Below are positions 980 through 56,884 of a stretch of 64,000 bases of DNA, piece after piece. The DNA comes from Escherichia coli. Its GTDB lineage: Bacteria > Pseudomonadota > Gammaproteobacteria > Enterobacterales > Enterobacteriaceae. The position numbers were made by a program, and so were the translations under genes. The notes beneath the pieces are model-generated. The model was given only the letters and a program-made list of their open reading frames with translations, did no database searches and was not told where the DNA came from. The stretch lies in NCBI RefSeq assembly GCF_003018255.1, contig NZ_CP027440.1; one strand, written 5' to 3'. Position 1 is the first letter of the stretch; each line of letters begins with the position of its first letter.

Positions 980-1825
980 ATGTCCACGACATGGTTTGTA
1001 GGAGCCGACTGGCTCGCCGAACATATTGATGACCCGGAAATTCAGATTATCGATGCCCGCATGGCGTCGCCTGGACAGGAAGATCGTAACGTTGCTCAGG
1101 AGTATCTGAATGGACATATTCCCGGCGCAGTGTTTTTTGATATCGAAGCGCTTTCTGATCACACTTCTCCGCTTCCGCACATGCTGCCGCGCCCGGAAAC
1201 GTTCGCCGTGGCGATGTGTGAATTAGGCGTTAACCAGGATAAGCACCTGATTGTCTATGACGAAGGTAATCTTTTCTCAGCCCCACGAGCATGGTGGATG
1301 CTGCGCACCTTTGGTGTAGAGAAAGTGTCGATTCTGGGTGGTGGACTTGCAGGCTGGCAGCGTGATGATCTGCTATTAGAAGAAGGCGCAGTAGAGCTGC
1401 CGGAAGGAGAGTTTAACGCCGCGTTTAATCCTGAAGCCGTGGTGAAAGTAACCGATGTGTTATTGGCAAGCCATGAAAATACGGCGCAAATTATCGATGC
1501 CCGCCCGGCTGCACGTTTTAACGCAGAAGTTGATGAACCTCGCCCAGGTTTACGTCGCGGACATATTCCCGGTGCACTAAATGTTCCGTGGACGGAACTG
1601 GTGCGCGAAGGTGAACTAAAAACGACCGATGAACTGGATGCGATATTTTTTGGTCGCGGCGTAAGTTATGACAAACCTATTATCGTCAGCTGCGGCTCTG
1701 GTGTAACGGCAGCCGTGGTTTTGTTGGCACTCGCGACACTTGATGTGCCAAACGTGAAACTGTACGACGGCGCATGGAGTGAATGGGGCGCACGAGCAGA
1801 TTTACCAGTTGAGCCAGAGAAATAA
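980..1825 (+). CDS. sseA: 3-mercaptopyruvate sulfurtransferase (tandem rhodanese domains)
   Basis: ORF track 821..1825; true start taken at internal ATG 980 (MSTTWFVGADWLAEH...), giving 281 aa. The track start at 821 is an in-frame upstream extension. Confidence 0.93.
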   Translation: MSTTWFVGADWLAEHIDDPEIQIIDARMASPGQEDRNVAQEYLNGHIPGAVFFDIEALSDHTSPLPHMLPRPETFAVAMCELGVNQDKHLIVYDEGNLFSAPRAWWMLRTFGVEKVSILGGGLAGWQRDDLLLEEGAVELPEGEFNAAFNPEAVVKVTDVLLASHENTAQIIDARPAARFNAEVDEPRPGLRRGHIPGALNVPWTELVREGELKTTDELDAIFFGRGVSYDKPIIVSCGSGVTAAVVLLALATLDVPNVKLYDGAWSEWGARADLPVEPEK

Positions 1826-1841: not shown

Positions 1842-1870
1842 AAAAAACCGCCGAATCTGGCGGTTTTTTA
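1842..1870. terminator. bidirectional rho-independent terminator after sseA
   Basis: A-tract, GC stem aaccgcc/ggcggtt with loop gaatct, then T-tract (aaaaaaccgccgaatctggcggtttttta). Symmetric, so it can terminate either strand. Confidence 0.75.
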
Positions 1871-2034
1871 TTGCTGGTCTGGTTCGCGGCCTTTCCAGCA
1901 GATTGGCTTGTGTTGCATGAGCAACGCAGGTGCTTCACAGCAAAGCAATACTCGCCAGTAACTCTCTTTTTGTCAAGCGAAAGAGAGTAATCATTGTTTA
2001 TTTAGCGTATTATCGACACCGGCCCTTTCCGCCG
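1871..2034. repeat. tandem repeat unit 1 (degenerate copy of the ryfA upstream module)
   Basis: Blocks ttgctggtctggttcgcggcctttccagcagattg (1871-1905) and caatactcgccagtaactctctttttgtcaag (1946-1977) plus downstream ...gtattatc...cctttccgccgt recur almost identically in unit 2, about 322 bp away. Confidence 0.8.
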
Positions 2035-2154
2035 TGTTCGGTAATAAAATAACCTAGCTTATTAGTCCGAATTCAGACAAATATAAACAAATCCTGCTCA
2101 AAATTAAAAATACTAACCGGTAAAAGATATTACTTAAACATGTAAATTCACTTT

Positions 2155-2198
2155 CCTTTAAAAAACAAAAAACCGCCAAAATCAGGCGGTTATTTGTT
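2155..2198. terminator. bidirectional rho-independent terminator inside the sseA-sseB intergenic region
   Basis: aaaaaacaaaaaa-accgcc-aaaatca-ggcggt-tatttgttg. The minus-strand T-tract (TTTTTTGTTTTTT) is stronger than the plus-strand one. Confidence 0.65.
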
Positions 2199-2265
2199 GC
2201 TGGTTTGGTTCGCGGCCTTTCCAGCAGATTGTATTACCGTAGTAATGCAAGCGCGTCTCAGCGGA
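2160..2265 (-). ncRNA. candidate divergent antisense sRNA (antitoxin-like) to the ryfA small-ORF mRNA
   Basis: Inferred. Minus-strand -35-like TTGACA (complement of 2293-2298) and strong minus-strand terminator at 2155-2198. Sequence 2247-2263 (gcaagcgcgtctcagcg) is identical to 2407-2423, so a minus-strand RNA across 2247-2263 would pair perfectly over 17 nt with the plus-strand ryfA transcript. Ends are approximate. Confidence 0.35.
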
Positions 2266-2357
2266 CACAATACTCGCCAGTAACTCTCTTTTTGTCAAGT
2301 AAAAGAGAGTTATTATTGTTCTGTTAGTGTATTATCCACTGCGGACCTTTCCGCCGT
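2196..2357. repeat. tandem repeat unit 2 (upstream module of ryfA)
   Basis: Near-identical to unit 1 in the two conserved blocks (2196-2230 and 2268-2299). The segment between the blocks differs between units and carries the 17-nt match to the ryfA body. Confidence 0.8.
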
Positions 2358-2646
2358 CTCGCAAGCGGGCGCTGGCTTAAGGAAAGGATGTTCCGCGACC
2401 GTTAGAGCAAGCGCGTCTCAGCGCTTGCTATCGCGGCAATATCGCCAGTGGTGCTGTCGTGATGCGGTCTTCGCATGGACCGCACAATGAAGATACGGTG
2501 CTTTTGTATCGTACTTATTGTTTCTGGTGCGCTGTTAAGCGAGGTAAATAATAACCGGAGTCTCTCCGGCAACAATTTACTGGCGGTTAACAACCTTCAG
2601 AGCAGCAAGTAAGCCCGAATGCCGCCCTTTGGGGCGGCATATTTTA
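2343..2646 (+). ncRNA. ryfA: RyfA-like RNA (likely mRNA for a small hydrophobic protein)
   Basis: Position between sseA and sseB; -10-like TATTAT at 2330-2335; strong terminator at 2619-2647; predicted length about 304 nt fits the RyfA size I recall. Boundaries inferred, not measured. Confidence 0.45.
2487..2612 (+). CDS. small hydrophobic protein, 41 aa (type I toxin-like, TimP-like candidate)
   Basis: Hand-translated ATG..TAA ORF: MKIRCFCIVLIVSGALLSEVNNNRSLSGNNLLAVNNLQSSK. Hydrophobic N-terminal stretch about 15 aa, polar N/S-rich tail. Sits inside the putative ryfA transcript just before its terminator. Weak Shine-Dalgarno; below the 60-aa cutoff of the ORF track. Confidence 0.4.
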   Translation: MKIRCFCIVLIVSGALLSEVNNNRSLSGNNLLAVNNLQSSK

Positions 2647-2647
2647 G
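2619..2647 (+). terminator. rho-independent terminator of the ryfA transcript (overlaps sseB stop codon)
   Basis: Stem atgccgccc/gggcggcat (9 bp), loop tttg, followed by attttag on the plus strand. Confidence 0.7.
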
Positions 2648-3420
2648 ATTATCCGGTTCTGTTTAAAGTCACGCAAAAAACCACCCCAGCGACGTTCATA
2701 GAATGGCGCAATATGTTCGGTAATAAAGTGGCTAATTCCTTTTTCCCCTTTTTTCACCTGACAAATATCGATGGGTTCATCGCCAGGTAATGTATCGGTC
2801 GCTACACTTCCCGCCGCCTGAATAATTTCTTCGATATCACCATCGGCTTCAATGCCAATAAGTAAATTAGGCTGTGCCTCTTCGTTCTCTTTAATTGAAC
2901 AAATAAAAGCACGCTTCACCGGCTTAATAGTTTTAAATAAGGTGGTGAGTGAATCAATCATTTGTGCTGGTGGCTCTGCGACTTCCGATAATATCAGCGA
3001 TTCACCGCCTTCCAGTACTTCCTGGCTGCTCAGCGGATTTCCTTCTTCACCAATCAGCAAACTGATTTCACGCGGCATAAATTCTTTACCGGTTGGCAGT
3101 TTGGCATTAAGGAAGAGCGTTTCGCCAAGGGTCATCTCAAACAATGTGCGAACGGGCATTACGACAAATGCCTGTTCGTCTTCAACCGCCTGTTGAAGTG
3201 CTTCTAACGAGGTAAAAAAAGGAATGACGCTGGTGCCGTCTTCTTTTTCCCAGTGCTGTAAATCAAGCGCGCTATCTTCAACCACAGCCTCGCCCTGCGC
3301 CGCCGTACCCGGCACCCAGACGGTGGATTCCAGTAGAGTACGGAAAAAGGCCGGGCGGTGCGCCGGTTCGGTTGCTGCTTTTTCCAGCAGGTCTTCAAGT
3401 TCGTTTTTTGTTTCGGACAT
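2644..3420 (-). CDS. sseB: rhodanese-enhancing protein SseB
   Basis: ORF track 2644..3429 begins with a GTG; start moved to ATG at 3418-3420 (MSETKNELEDLL...), giving 258 aa. Confidence 0.9.
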   Translation of the reverse strand: MSETKNELEDLLEKAATEPAHRPAFFRTLLESTVWVPGTAAQGEAVVEDSALDLQHWEKEDGTSVIPFFTSLEALQQAVEDEQAFVVMPVRTLFEMTLGETLFLNAKLPTGKEFMPREISLLIGEEGNPLSSQEVLEGGESLILSEVAEPPAQMIDSLTTLFKTIKPVKRAFICSIKENEEAQPNLLIGIEADGDIEEIIQAAGSVATDTLPGDEPIDICQVKKGEKGISHFITEHIAPFYERRWGGFLRDFKQNRII

Positions 3421-3456
3421 AAGAACCACAATTCATTCAACGTTCGGGGCACAAGT

Positions 3457-3485
3457 GCCTGATGCGCTACGCTTATCAGGCCTAC
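3457..3485. repeat. REP (repetitive extragenic palindrome) element
   Basis: gcctgatgcgctacgcttatcaggcctac, a canonical REP-type imperfect palindrome, in the sseB-pepB intergenic region. Confidence 0.7.
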
Positions 3486-3538
3486 AAGGGAATCTCAATC
3501 TATTGGATTTTCGCAATTTTGTAGGCCAAATAAGACGT

Positions 3539-4822
3539 TTACGCCGTTAACAGATTAGCAATCGTGCGCACACCTAGCCCGGTCGCGCCCGCAGACCACT
3601 GTTCAACCGGCGCTTTACGGTAAGTCGCCGAGCAGTCGATATGCAGCCAGCCTTGCTGATAGTTCTCAACAAAGTGCGACAGGAAGCCCGCCGCCGTGCT
3701 TGCACCTGCCGGATACGCCGCGCTTCCGGTATTGTTCAGTTCGGCAAAGTTAGACGGCAGCTGGCTGCGGTGGAACTCCGCCAGCGGCAGACGCCAGAAT
3801 GGTTCATTCTCCTGCGCGGCACTCGCCAGCAAGCGAGCGGCAAGCGCATCGTCAAAACTGAACAGCGCGTGATAATCATTACCCAGCGCGGTTTTCGCCG
3901 CCCCGGTGAGGGTCGCCGCATCAATGATCAGTTCCGGTTTCTGCGCACTGGCATCAATCAGGCCATCGGCCAGCACCAGACGCCCTTCCGCATCGGTGTT
4001 CATCACTTCAACTTTTTTACCGTTGCGATAGGTAATGATATCGCCCAGCTTGAACGCATTGCCGCTGATCAGGTTATCCGCACAGCAGAGGAACAGCTTC
4101 ACGCGCTTGTTCAGTCCGCGCGTAATGGCAAACGCCAGCGCTCCGGTAACCGTTGCCGCGCCGCCCATGTCCGACTTCATCGAGTCCATAAATGCGGTCT
4201 GTTTGATACTGTAGCCGCCGGAATCAAAGGTGATGCCTTTACCAACCAGGCACGCGTACACTGGCGCTTCTTTATCGCCTGTTGGGTTGTAATCCAGCGC
4301 CAGCAATACCGGGGAACGTTCTGAACCGCGCCCGACCGTGTGCAGCCCCATATAACCTTGATCACGCAGATCTTCGCCTTTGGTGATCCGGTAAGTCACA
4401 CGATCGCCCGCGACGTTGCTGATCAGATCAACAGCACGCTGTGCCAGTTGCGATGGCCCCAGTTCTTCCGCCGGTGCGTTGATGGTGTCACGCACCCAGT
4501 CGATGATCATCAGGCGGTTATCCAGTTCCTGCCGTTGGGCATCGTCCAGATCCGGCCACTCCACTTTACGTGTGCCTTTCGGGGCTTTGTAACCTTGCCA
4601 GAATGCCCAGCAGCGATCCGCATCCCAGTCTTCACCGCTTAACTGAACATGCTTGATGCCCAGACCGTCAATCTTGCGCGCCGCACGCTGGATCAGCCCC
4701 AGATCGTCTGTCCCGTTCAAATGCAGGGTAATGCCATCATTATTAATGCTGTAAGTCGCTTTTTCTCCCCAGCGCGCGTCGGCAGGTTGGGTAGAAAGGG
4801 TAATTTTCATCGCTTCTGTCAT
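3539..4822 (-). CDS. pepB: aminopeptidase B (M17 family)
   Basis: ORF track, 427 aa, [21 protein letters not shown]...; contains the M17 NTDAEGRL motif. Confidence 0.95.
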
Positions 4823-7907: not shown

Positions 7908-8231
7908 TCAAACGTGGAAGCTTTCGCCGCAACCACACTCATCTTTGACGTTCGGGTTGGTGAATTTAAACCCTTCGTTCAGGCCTTCTTTTACGAAGTC
8001 CAGCTGCGTACCGTCCAGAAATTGCAGGCTTTTGCCATCGACCACGACTTTCACGCCTTTGTCTTCAAACACGATGTCTTCCGGCGTCGGTTCGTCAACA
8101 AATTCCAGTACATAAGCCATACCTGAACATCCGGAGGTTCTCACGCCCAGACGCAGGCCAAACCCTTTGCCGCGGTTAGCCAGAAAGGTATTTACTCGCG
8201 CTGCTGCACTGTCGCTCAGTGTAATCGACAT
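7908..8231 (-). CDS. iscA: Fe-S cluster assembly protein IscA (A-type carrier)
   Basis: ORF track 7908..8237; start taken at [13 protein letters not shown]..., 107 aa; C-terminal CGCGESF motif. Confidence 0.93.
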
Positions 8232-9876: not shown

Positions 9877-9987
9877 TGCTCTATAAACTCCGTACATCAC
9901 TCAATGCAAGGAACCAGGCTACCGGCTGGATGTACGACCGTGTTTACGGAGTGTTTAGCACTCCGGCCTGATTCTGAATTCTTTTTA

Positions 9988-21936: not shown

Positions 21937-22070
21937 ATGCCGGATGCGGCGTGAACGCCTTATCCTGCCTACCGTTCCAACACCAATTGTAGGCCTGATA
22001 AGACGCGGCAAGCGTCGCATCAGGCATCGTGCGCCGAGTGCCGGATGCGGTGTGAACGCCTTATCCGGCA
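21937..22070. repeat. BIME cluster: three REP elements
   Basis: gatgccggatgcggcgtgaacgccttatcc, ggcctgataagacgcggcaagcgtcgcatcaggc and tgccggatgcggtgtgaacgccttatccggca between convergent yphA and yphB. Confidence 0.8.
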
Positions 22071-39284: not shown

Positions 39285-39470
39285 ACAACAAAGCCGGGAA
39301 TTACCCGGCTTTGTTATGGAATAAGGCGGTGCCTAACTCGACGTTTCGCCCGATGGTTGATATAGCTACGCTGATATCAGAAGTTGGACGGCAGGCACCT
39401 TGTTGTGCGTCATTCGTATTTTATGTAGCACGTCCCGAAGGGGCTGACATAAGTCGGTGAATGAGCCACT
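39285..39470 (-). ncRNA. glmY: GlmY small RNA
   Basis: Minus-strand sequence from AGTGGCTCATTCACCGACTTATGTCAGCCCCTTCGGGACG... to a terminator hairpin (aacaaagccggg/cccggctttgtt) plus U-tract; about 185 nt; matches the GlmY sequence and its position upstream of glrK as I recall them. Confidence 0.8.
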
Positions 39471-48648: not shown

Positions 48649-48726
48649 TGTTGGAATCGTGTGCTGCACAAAATTAAAGTTGTAAAGTGAAAACCCCCGT
48701 TCCTTACCAGTTCGGGGGTTTTACTT
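48649..48726 (+). ncRNA. ohsC: OhsC antitoxin sRNA (candidate boundaries)
   Basis: Plus-strand -10-like CATAAT (48637-48642) and terminator hairpin cccccg/cggggg plus TTTTACTT. Its 5' segment ttggaatcgtgtgctgcac (48651-48669) repeats ttggaatcgagtgctgcac (48402-48420) in the shoB 5' UTR region, giving 18 of 19 nt complementarity to the shoB mRNA. Ends inferred. Confidence 0.55.
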
Positions 48727-48747
48727 TATAAAGAGAACGGTATTTTT

Positions 48748-50610: not shown

Positions 50611-52223
<1,613 letters not shown>

Positions 52224-52226
52224 TCA

Positions 52227-52320
52227 GCACACGAAACAGACCTGATATACATGGCTCGGCTAACTGCTTCACTGCAGTTTCAGTTTACCGGTATATGGGG
52301 ACCAACGCTGTTTCGTGTGC
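52227..52320 (-). promoter_or_regulatory. rnc 5' leader long stem-loop (candidate RNase III autoregulatory site)
   Basis: gcacacgaaacag (52227-52239) and ctgtttcgtgtgc (52308-52320) are perfect inverted repeats about 70 nt apart in the rnc leader. Confidence 0.55.
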
Positions 52321-52419
52321 CGTGGCAACCTAGAGGTGCCAACCTTAAACTTCGGGGGAATATTCTATACACAACGACGGGGGATGTCGTTAGCCACGGG
52401 AGATTTATCTCATAAATAA

Positions 52420-53454: not shown

Positions 53455-55254
<1,800 letters not shown>

Positions 55255-55451
55255 AAAGTATGATTATTGTGCCTTAATGCCCGGTTAACCAGGCTTTTAG
55301 AAGTCGCTGTTCTGAGCTTAACGTCTGTATTAATAGAAACGCCGCATTCTACACTACAACATTGAGGCGAGGAAATGTTCATACCGTATGGATTGTGGTA
55401 TCTGGAAACGTCCTCGCATTTGTTATGCAAAATGCAACAAAGCCAGTGAAA

Positions 55452-55931
55452 TCACTGGCTCGCGTCTTCCGAAGATGTTTCAAATCGCACAAGGCCAGGC
55501 GGCAAGGCCACGCTTAAGATGATCGGTTGCCATTCAGACCGGGCAGCAAACTTTCGAGAGCAGCCACGTGCAATCAGGAATCCACCAACGCCACCGAGAA
55601 TCGCACCGCATAATGCTGCAATATCTGAAGCAAAGAGTAGCTGAAATAGTGAAGCGATGAGGAATAGTCCCACCAACGGCGACATATAAACCAGTAATGC
55701 GGAGCTAAGCAGGCTGCCTTCGGCGATTCCTAATTCTACTTTTTGCCCCGGCACTAACGGCTCATCACAGGGTACGACAATGGTATGCGTGGTTTGCGGG
55801 CCAAGTTTATTCAACACGCGGCTACCGCAACCGGCACGTGAAGCGCAGCTGCTGCATGAGGCTTTAACATCACAACTAACCAGCGCCTGCCCGTTTTCCC
55901 AGGAGACGACGGTAGCCCACTCTTTGATCAT
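55452..55931 (-). CDS. rseC: sigma-E regulatory protein RseC
   Basis: ORF track, 159 aa, MIKEWATVVSWENGQALV... Confidence 0.93.
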   Translation of the reverse strand: MIKEWATVVSWENGQALVSCDVKASCSSCASRAGCGSRVLNKLGPQTTHTIVVPCDEPLVPGQKVELGIAEGSLLSSALLVYMSPLVGLFLIASLFQLLFASDIAALCGAILGGVGGFLIARGCSRKFAARSEWQPIILSVALPPGLVRFETSSEDASQ

Positions 55932-56884
55932 TGCGCTGCCCCGAACTTAATATTCTCGGCAATGCGTTTCGCCGTTTGCGGCGGCAGTTCACCGACAATG
56001 GTGATTTCGGCGTTATCACGTACGCTTGTACTGACGGTTCTGCGCCCGGTGCGCAACATCTGATCGGTGCTCGATGGCGTAGCGCGGTTAACGTTTACCG
56101 AGAAGCTGAATAATCCGTCGGAATAGAGACGTGATTCGATAGGCATGTTGTCCATCGTCGGTAGCGGACGTCGACTACTGGAAACTTCGCTAAAACCCTG
56201 TGGCAACCAGGTTGGCGTCCAGCTGAATTTAGCTTTTTCACCTACAGGAACAGAAAGCAACGGCGGCAAATTTGCCTTCGCCAGCGTCTGCATACTGCTG
56301 CTGATATCCTGATTGACATTAAAAGCAATCACGCGAAATTGTTCCAGCGTTTCACCATCGCGATCAAGGAGATCAACCCGCATCGGTAATTTCGATTCGG
56401 TGTCCATCCACACGATGTAGCTGTAGCGTGTACCATCTCGGGCAACCACACGAATGACTTCGCAAAGACGATCAGCAATACGCGTGCGCCCGACGGAGAT
56501 AAAGTCGTAGTAAGGAGAAAGGCGTTTGAAATCGGTATAGATGAGCGATGGTAGAGAATCAACAATGTAATCGCCATTAAGCGTGAACGGTTCAAGTCCC
56601 GGTTCAAAATAGCTGATTTCATTGCCGCGCTGTACCACTTCCCGGCGCGGGCCATCCATTTGCAACAATTGTGCAAGAGGACGGTTATCGAGGCGTGCAT
56701 GTCGATAACGCAGAGACTCAACACCCTGTTTATTGATGCTGATGAATGACAGCTCGTAATTCAGTGACTGACTGGCCAGGTTCATCTGCTGTAATAACGC
56801 CCCGGACGCGGGAGTGGCCGAGGCGTTAGCAGAGAATAACAGGCTACCTGTCACTAATGACATGGCAAACCAAAGTTGCTTCAT
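55928..56884 (-). CDS. rseB: sigma-E regulatory protein RseB (periplasmic)
   Basis: ORF track, 318 aa, signal peptide MKQLWFAMSLVTGSLLFSANASA. Confidence 0.95.
   Translation of the reverse strand: MKQLWFAMSLVTGSLLFSANASATPASGALLQQMNLASQSLNYELSFISINKQGVESLRYRHARLDNRPLAQLLQMDGPRREVVQRGNEISYFEPGLEPFTLNGDYIVDSLPSLIYTDFKRLSPYYDFISVGRTRIADRLCEVIRVVARDGTRYSYIVWMDTESKLPMRVDLLDRDGETLEQFRVIAFNVNQDISSSMQTLAKANLPPLLSVPVGEKAKFSWTPTWLPQGFSEVSSSRRPLPTMDNMPIESRLYSDGLFSFSVNVNRATPSSTDQMLRTGRRTVSTSVRDNAEITIVGELPPQTAKRIAENIKFGAAQ

Follow-up and report, generated by a model that had tools for sequence, protein, structure and literature searches.

A probable orphan timR gene beside ryfA/timP in Escherichia coli, apparently left by deletion of its toxin partner

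The RNA designated ryfA is the mRNA of TimP, a toxic inner-membrane peptide, and is repressed by TimR, a divergently transcribed small RNA (sRNA) of approximately 100 nt (PMC7667032). In Salmonella, the 5′-terminal 18 or so nucleotides of TimR pair with a hairpin in the timP 5′-UTR and block translation (PMC7667032, PMC11228461); TimR binding destabilizes a pseudoknot that is required for timP translation (PMC11228461). Tandem modules, RyfB1-RyfA1 and RyfB2-RyfA2, have been described in Shigella dysenteriae, with specificity set by a 5-nt variable region, for which Fris et al. described the ryfA classes CGCGT, TGTTT and CACCC (PMC5333039).

The DNA analysed here, referred to as the window, is a 64-kb stretch (64,000 nt) that begins in the sseA/ryfA/sseB/pepB region of E. 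coli and contains the sseA-ryfA/timP-sseB locus, already known to encode a type I toxin-antitoxin system. This locus resembles the timPR locus of Salmonella Typhimurium (PMC7667032, PMC11228461, PMC13000454) in having a divergent sRNA of about 100 nt upstream of ryfA/timP, pairing of the first 18 or so nucleotides of that sRNA with a 5′-UTR hairpin located at roughly nt 65-80 of the mRNA, an intrinsic terminator and a location in the sseA-sseB neighbourhood. It differs from the Salmonella locus in that one of its two antitoxin units, unit 1, has had its own toxin gene deleted and faces a single timP with a non-matching site, an allele known by its sequence. The tandem arrangement and the role of the 5-nt variable region are shared with S. 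dysenteriae (PMC5333039), where neither toxin gene has been lost; in the window, one toxin accompanies two antitoxins. The features flanking unit 1 are as follows (specificity types are defined below).

980-1825, plus strand: sseA
2167-2264, minus strand: timR of type a (unit 2), cognate antitoxin of the window timP, with a perfect 16-bp helix
2341-2645, plus strand: ryfA/timP mRNA (Rfam ryfA, RF00126, 312 bits)
2406-2422, plus strand: type a TimR site in the timP mRNA, a direct repeat of the unit 2 core
2487-2612, plus strand: timP coding sequence, from the RefSeq annotation of the 100 % identical locus of strain DETEC-S792
2644-3420, minus strand: sseB

The match at 2341-2645 was the only one to ryfA obtained with Rfam in the 64-kb window. 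Unit 1 (1842-2035) and unit 2 (2168-2357) are 86-87 % identical (86 % between 1842-1905 and 2168-2231; 87 % between 1946-2035 and 2268-2357), and their homology stops at ...CCTTTCCGCCGT (2035/2357). The initial annotation had described unit 1 as a repeat of unit 2 with a variable core that has no match in the region, and both statements hold: the repeat is real, a chance match being excluded, and the 40-nt core (GCTTGTGTTGCATGAGCAACGCAGGTGCTTCACAGCAAAG) occurs once in the window (both strands, up to 3 mismatches; 0 occurrences expected by chance). Beyond the window, however, the core does have partners, as it pairs with type b timP 5′-UTRs, including that of E. coli K-12. The terminator, conserved blocks and TATTAT element noted at the same time are present, but the module envisaged from them overlooked an sRNA on the minus strand. 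The conserved blocks and terminator are a minus-strand sRNA gene with its promoter, and only TATTAT (2008-2013) belongs to the plus strand; each unit is a timR (antitoxin sRNA) gene of approximately 100 nt on the minus strand together with a divergent timP promoter. Conserved block 1 corresponds to the sRNA body, the variable core to stem-loop SL1 plus the 5′ seed, and conserved block 2 to the sRNA promoter. The antitoxin half of unit 1 comprises:

1842-1941, minus strand: timR paralogue of specificity type b (the unit 1 sRNA gene), approximately 100 nt, orthologue of K-12 timR b4811 by alignment
1842-1869, both strands: bidirectional intrinsic terminator hairpin AAAAAACCGCC-GAATCT-GGCGGTTTTTT, recognized from sequence and forming the 3′ hairpin in the fold
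1924-1941, minus strand: 5′ seed of TimR type b, GCUGUGAAGCACCUGCGU, identified by pairing with K-12 timP mRNA
1948-1976, minus strand: putative sigma-70 promoter of timR type b, from sequence, in the block conserved between units

The hairpin at 1842-1869 is common to sseA (plus strand) and timR type b (minus strand); a scan for consensus promoters and terminators missed it because the maximal stem absorbs the T-run, an artefact of the scan. The transcription start at 1941 follows from the annotated 5′ end in K-12, and the predicted sigma-70 promoter consists of TTGACA (1976-1971), a 17-nt spacer and GAGTAT (1953-1948). The 100-nt RNA folds at -36 kcal/mol (z = -3.7) and fits the family consensus of single-stranded 5′ seed, SL1, SL2 and terminator. 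In both units (1961-1988 and 2279-2314), the TTGACA box of timR lies within an inverted repeat of 10-14 bp, ACTCTCTTTTTGTCAAG.GAAAGAGAGT; the repeat could be an operator for some regulator or mere symmetry of the promoter region. The old K-12 sRNA candidate C0614 (U00096.2 2651474-2651560, minus strand) maps to about 1938-2024 (minus strand) of the window, where it lies over the region of divergent promoters that immediately precedes the start of the unit 1 sRNA, although its array-derived boundaries may be imprecise.

A search of genome contigs with the ryfA motif returned seven loci, none from Salmonella, and revealed the TimR body and matched seeds in Citrobacter and E. whittamii. Unit 1 shares the conserved body GGTTCGCGGCCTTTCCAGC with these loci, and in each of them, those of Citrobacter included, a core and target specific to the locus match one another. 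A single-stranded 5′ end, SL1, an invariant SL2 and the terminator recur in all twelve TimR sequences compared (E. coli, E. whittamii and Citrobacter), and their consensus displays compensatory GC to AU (and AU to GC) changes in SL1. Unit 1 shares with TimR/RyfB homology to an annotated TimR, a length of approximately 100 nt, an intrinsic terminator and the conserved fold. Rfam release 15 contains no TimR family and gave only sub-threshold, terminator-driven matches (AgrB, RNAI, rimP); identification of unit 1 as AgrB (RF02891, the antitoxin sRNA of dinQ) was rejected, the match (E = 0.15) falling short of the gathering score, with 27.8 bits where 40 are needed, and lying mostly in the terminator. 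As to ryfA/timP (RF00126), unit 1 gave no covariance-model match, and no timP ORF was found past its promoter. In NZ_CP015229.1 (locus 600-700) and Citrobacter amalonaticus (about 8071-8140), two unrelated genomes, a timR core is fused to a timP 5′-UTR at the seed/target repeat, for example GCAGGCACCCCACAG joined to TGCTTGC, with both promoters deleted; this looks like a recurrent route of decay by recombination between sRNA seed and target. An IS3-family element is inserted in the timR terminator of NZ_CP015229.1.

On its plus-strand side, unit 1 is divergent from a timP promoter and a 17-nt timP stub only, and the nearest intact timP lies 400 nt away, behind the second timR. Unit 1 adjoins only this promoter and stub because the body of the timP gene has been deleted. 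Strains with two or three copies of ryfA were pointed to by approximately 177 extra ryfA matches in 5,425 genomes, and the comparison with such genomes, which had been suggested at the outset, revealed the toxin deletion. In EC488 and 33F4, the order is sseA, timR, timP, sseB′ (an 87-nt 3′ fragment of sseB), AT-rich spacer, timR, timP and sseB. The unit 1 core is identical to that of the timR of the second EC488 module, the adjacent timP of which carries GCAGGTGTTTCACAG. The corresponding remnants in the window are:

2008-2035, plus strand: remnant of the deleted toxin gene, namely the -10 box TATTAT (2008-2013) and the first 17 nt of a type b timP mRNA (2019-2035)
2036-2048, no strand assigned: GTTCGGTAATAAA, the terminal 13 nt of the duplicated sseB 3′ fragment (87 nt), forming the right side of the junction
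2049-2160, no strand assigned: AT-rich inter-module spacer, recognized by identity to two-module genomes and K-12

The segment 2008-2035 aligns collinearly with the promoter of unit 2 and with the start of ryfA (2341), and is identical to intact b-type modules (EC488, MS15046) up to CCGCCGT, after which those modules continue CTCGCAAACGGG... In the window, CCGCCGT (timP +17) is joined directly to the 13-nt segment, which is identical to authentic sseB (window 2715-2727) and to the last nucleotides of sseB′ in both EC488 and 33F4; K-12 has the same junction. The spacer is 92-94 % identical to the inter-module spacers of EC488, 33F4 and TB06052, and 97.6 % identical to that of K-12. From the junction of timP +17 with the sseB fragment it follows that approximately 357 nt are missing: the timP 5′-UTR beyond +17, together with the timP ORF and terminator and 74 nt of sseB′. 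Judged from these alignments, unit 1 lost its toxin by a single clean deletion of that length. The earlier suggestion of a remnant of a once-duplicated toxin-antitoxin module is borne out by the existence of two-module genomes and by the clean junction. The accompanying term 'degenerating' is not: between 1826 and 2035, which takes in the antitoxin gene, both promoters and the terminator, the window is identical at 209 of 210 positions to MS15046, where timR type b is the sole and cognate antitoxin beside an intact type b timP. The antitoxin half is pristine and the toxin half gone, a state that may reflect recency, recombination or selection.

The AT-rich tail, which consists of the junction and spacer just described, had been thought to hold no ORF of more than a few codons. 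Its composition (27 % G+C at 2050-2199) agrees with that description and no plus-strand ORF of 20 aa or more was found in 2036-2160, but a 41-codon, TTG-initiated ORF crosses it on the minus strand (2054-2179). That ORF is broken in EC488 and 33F4 and has lost its stop codon in K-12; as it is not conserved in relatives, it was rejected as a coding sequence. Also rejected was the view of unit 1 as a gene driven by the plus-strand promoter, for past the 17-nt stub there is nothing ryfA-like (homology ends at 2035) and no ORF.

The stretch beyond the promoter does, however, have an entry in Rfam, and the functional product of the region might instead be a plus-strand RNA (about 2019-2200) made from the TATTAT promoter.

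2001-2209, plus strand: Rfam IS128 (RF00125), full-length match (model positions 1-209) of 258.3 bits, gathering score 80

This match covers the AT-rich stretch. The full-length score of 258 bits, a promoter identical to that of intact type b timP genes and a fold with z = -2.6 all speak for such an RNA. Against it, the sequence is composed of timP stub, sseB remnant and spacer, and the two-module genomes are the reason for regarding the IS128 'family' as a product of the deletion junction and not as an independently evolved RNA gene. In K-12, moreover, IS128 was undetected by strand-specific Northern analysis, for which its authors suggested an artefact or condition-specific expression (PMC3175480); a screen of biofilm formation and motility found no effect of overexpressing it (PMC4606813), and it is missing from most E. 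coli lineages (PMC3318445, and the genome comparison here). A functional IS128 RNA is accordingly considered highly unlikely, and IS128 would be a hypothetical read-through transcript that starts at the orphaned timP promoter and runs as far as the hairpin of unit 2.

Specificity was typed from every timR core and every timP 5′-UTR in the retrieved loci. By this comparison, E. coli has at least three matched seed/target types, named by their variable regions:

Type a (CGCGT): timR core GCAAGCGCGTCTCAGCG; timP 5′-UTR site of the same sequence; single matched module in FDAARGOS_1302
Type b (TGTTT): timR core GCAGGTGCTTCACAGC; timP 5′-UTR site GCAGGTGTTTCACAGC (one G.U); single matched module in MS15046
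Type c (CACCC): timR core GCAGGCACCCCACAG; timP 5′-UTR site the same or with 1 mismatch; single matched module in LH85-a

These types correspond to the ryfA variable-region classes of Fris et al.; the type b target falls in the RyfA2 class and type a in one 'RyfA1-like' class (PMC5333039), so that unit 1, by its variable region, would be the equivalent of RyfB2. A fourth timR core type, ATTGTATTACTGCAAGTGTATCTCGTCTACT, occurs in NZ_CM151352.1 (locus 430-720) in a unit without a timP stub; the architecture there is also that of an orphan, with the fourth-type timR followed by the same AT-rich spacer and then by a matched a/a module.

Unit 1 is of type b, whereas unit 2 and the window timP site (2406-2422) are of type a. 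The type b seed pairs with timP alleles that carry GCAGGTGTTTCACAG. Pairing was evaluated with RNAduplex for the 5′ 22 nt of TimR against each timP mRNA, with z computed against 500 shuffles:

TimR type a (nt 1-16) with window timP mRNA +67..+82: 16 bp, perfect; -35.9 kcal/mol; z = -6.7
TimR type b with window timP mRNA: longest helix 9 bp, including 4 G.U; -21.4 kcal/mol; z = -0.7
TimR type b with K-12 timP mRNA +64..+81: 18 bp (2 G.U); -31.5 kcal/mol; z = -5.1

Near the timP start, a possible second site for TimR type b was discarded, being at chance level. The 5′ 16-18 nt of unit 1 do not pair throughout with the window timP 5′-UTR; complementarity of that extent was found with the type b timP of K-12 and EC488. 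Because unit 1 is of type b and the only timP of the strain is of type a, matched by unit 2, the unit 1 RNA has no local partner. The interpretation preferred here, with a probability of roughly 70 %, is that unit 1 is the intact orphan timR of a second timPR module whose toxin was deleted, and that it is probably expressed as a spare antitoxin with no target. We infer that unit 1 is transcribed in this strain and that its RNA has no other target; the anatomy, the deletion, the seed/target types and the population distribution are shown by the sequences.

Were unit 1 instead a redundant second antitoxin, it would repress the type a timP by imperfect pairing, as the -21.4 kcal/mol duplex with the window timP mRNA (+118..+136) might suggest. 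That energy is indistinguishable from those of shuffled seeds (122 of the 500 equal it), RyfB1 of S. dysenteriae leaves RyfA2, a sibling with a different 5-nt variable region, unaffected (PMC5333039), and seed mutations abolish rescue in Salmonella (PMC7667032). Redundancy of this kind is very improbable.

A further alternative is that unit 1 is a trans-acting sRNA which regulates an mRNA elsewhere in the genome. This would account for a gene that is fully intact though it has no local target, although recent origin or recombination explains the intactness equally. The ryfA-deletion phenotypes of avian pathogenic E. coli, which vanish in a ryfA-timR double mutant (PMC13188913), could be taken in the same sense; they were read by their authors as aberrant regulation by unpaired TimR (PMC13188913). 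The 64-kb window contains no second site for the 20-nt seed-sense sequence (up to 4 mismatches), and the sole near match to the 15-nt target pattern, GCAGCTGTTTCACGG at 53619-53633 (plus strand, 2 mismatches), is at chance level (0.34 expected). Across strains and genera, furthermore, the seed co-varies with the adjacent timP 5′-UTR, as expected of a dedicated antitoxin. A trans target is therefore regarded as improbable, and the orphan antitoxin is retained as the better account.

Over 1826-2650, K-12 and the window are 95.6 % identical and share the two units, the spacer and the junction. The K-12 gene timR b4811 ('putative small regulatory RNA TimR' in RefSeq; NC_000913.3 2653356-2653455, minus strand) corresponds to window 1842-1941, and unit 1 aligns with it base for base (197/207 over the unit). 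The differences between K-12 timP and that of the window cluster at 2396-2418, where the K-12 5′-UTR carries a type b site. The antitoxin that matches the K-12 toxin is therefore unit 1, at a distance of 400 nt, while unit 2, the nearer of the two, is the orphan there. The window is the reciprocal state, with unit 2 cognate and unit 1 orphan: scaffold, two timR genes and junction are as in K-12 (b4811 and ECS011/IS129), but the cognate and orphan roles are swapped. The K-12 orphan is expressed, as ECS011 (= IS129; CCGCUGAGACGCGCUUGCAUUACUACGG...), the sequence of which is that of unit 2, was recovered by sequencing and, with a probe specific for the core, was seen on Northern blots at ~95 and ~100 nt (Shinhara et al. 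2011, PMC3175480). In RefSeq, K-12 unit 2 (locus 1676-1855 from NC_000913.3, equivalent to window 2161-2340) carries no ncRNA feature.

Unit 1 might nevertheless be a silent pseudogene, untranscribed or transcribed at negligible levels and awaiting decay. The 229 candidate RNAs that Shinhara et al. 2011 (PMC3175480) listed for K-12 include none from unit 1, and H-NS binding, as well as a constitutive promoter (TTGTCA-16-TATTGT), has been reported in the K-12 sseA-ryfA spacer (PMC3946193), the former being compatible with silence. Nor does unit 1 have a cognate target, either in the window timP or, among the best 60 of 121 window-type genomes, in a type b site. On the other hand, its promoter, seed and terminator are identical to those of strains in which the unit 1 timR is the only antitoxin, and the reciprocal K-12 orphan is clearly expressed (PMC3175480). 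Silence is thus judged unlikely, and the RNA of the orphan timR is probably still made in this strain.

The distribution of the two states was determined with composite queries of 48-50-nt diagnostic pieces (b-core, junction, a-core and one target site), all four of which had to be present. Among 5,426 complete genomes, 121 were of the window type and 1,529 of the K-12 type; most other complete E. coli genomes have a single module. Approximately 30 % of complete E. coli genomes, K-12 included, carry a timR paralogue without a cognate toxin site. The best 60 of the 121 window-type genomes, many of them avian isolates and with NZ_CP116067.1 as the nearest relative, have a single matching place each in the chromosome record; in these 60, no type b timP site was found in the chromosome record, and no match was placed on plasmids.

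To judge from its sequence, the locus is clearly a recombination mosaic: terminator type follows position, core type does not, and unit 1 is closer to MS15046 than to K-12. Mapping of recombination breakpoints against K-12 was uninformative, the divergence being ~2-3 % throughout, from which the direction of the a/b exchange cannot be inferred. The following course of events is proposed. A second timPR module would have had its toxin gene removed by the single deletion of ~357 nt, the left half of the module remaining as unit 1. What survived on the minus strand would be a complete timR-family gene, with its TTGACA-17-GAGTAT promoter, ~100-nt RNA and terminator shared with sseA; the plus strand would have kept the timP promoter, which points the other way, the first 17 nt of timP, a 13-nt remainder of the duplicated sseB fragment and the spacer that normally separates the modules. 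Together with the deletion, an exchange of alleles at the surviving timP would have left the type b TimR without a local partner. Either the deletion preceded the exchange of the target patch, or the reverse.

Both allele states occur on an identical scaffold and junction (a-site in 121 genomes, b-site in 1,529), with the non-cognate timR seed intact in each. It is conceivable, though doubtful, that the two-antitoxin scaffold has been retained as a 'spare key', allowing the timP target allele to be swapped without an unrepressed phase, or neutralizing an incoming type b timP. If so, unit 1 would shape the evolution of toxin-antitoxin specificity in E. coli.

The TimR/TimP (RyfB/RyfA) family, K-12 b4811, IS128, IS129/ECS011 and C0614 are already known. 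In the TimPR/RyfA literature searched, no description was found of a duplicated locus with a deleted toxin that unites IS128, IS129/ECS011, C0614, timR and ryfA, of an orphan timR in K-12-like and window-like strains, or of an orphan/cognate swap between lineages. Recognition of these five as pieces of one duplicated timPR locus tidies the sRNA catalogue. The role of true antitoxin falls to one timR gene or the other depending on the lineage, a matter of consequence when 'timR' is deleted in a given strain. The locus also offers a natural system in which to study the divergence of seed/target specificity in type I antitoxins, although the mechanism is not new in kind. Ibs/Sib and ZorO-OrzO/ZorP-OrzP are multi-copy type I systems with copy-specific antitoxins, and orphan Sok-like antitoxins are known as well. 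The likeness to such systems lies in paralogous sRNAs that tell their own toxin mRNA by a short variable seed, and in the piecemeal decay of loci. Sib RNAs are fully overlapping cis-antisense RNAs, whereas the seed/target pair of the window is non-overlapping; a further difference from the multi-copy systems is that the scaffold here is fixed with two antitoxins while one target allele has been exchanged.

Several other elements were observed in the window. Between sseB and pepB (3440-3540) there is a palindromic, REP-like element, gcctgatgcgctacgcttatcaggcctac, where SNPs relative to K-12 cluster, an indel occurs at ~3536 and there is a weak match to ES036 (24 bits). Rfam matches at gathering level were obtained for the iscRS element (9878-9987), naRNA4 (21992-22070), GlmY (39323-39470), rncO (52139-52353) and AsrC (55136-55967). 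A match to Rfam ohsC (RF02495, 95 bits), which is the sRNA antitoxin in the type I pair shoB-ohsC, was found at 48650-48727 (plus strand), and the window therefore contains a second divergent type I toxin-antitoxin locus. The genes ryfB/ryfC are the shoB/ohsC pair, and the Shigella names 'RyfB1/2' are unrelated. A placement of K-12 ryfB/ryfC in the sseA-ryfA spacer was rejected; K-12 ryfB has been reclassified as a small-protein mRNA (PMC3318445).
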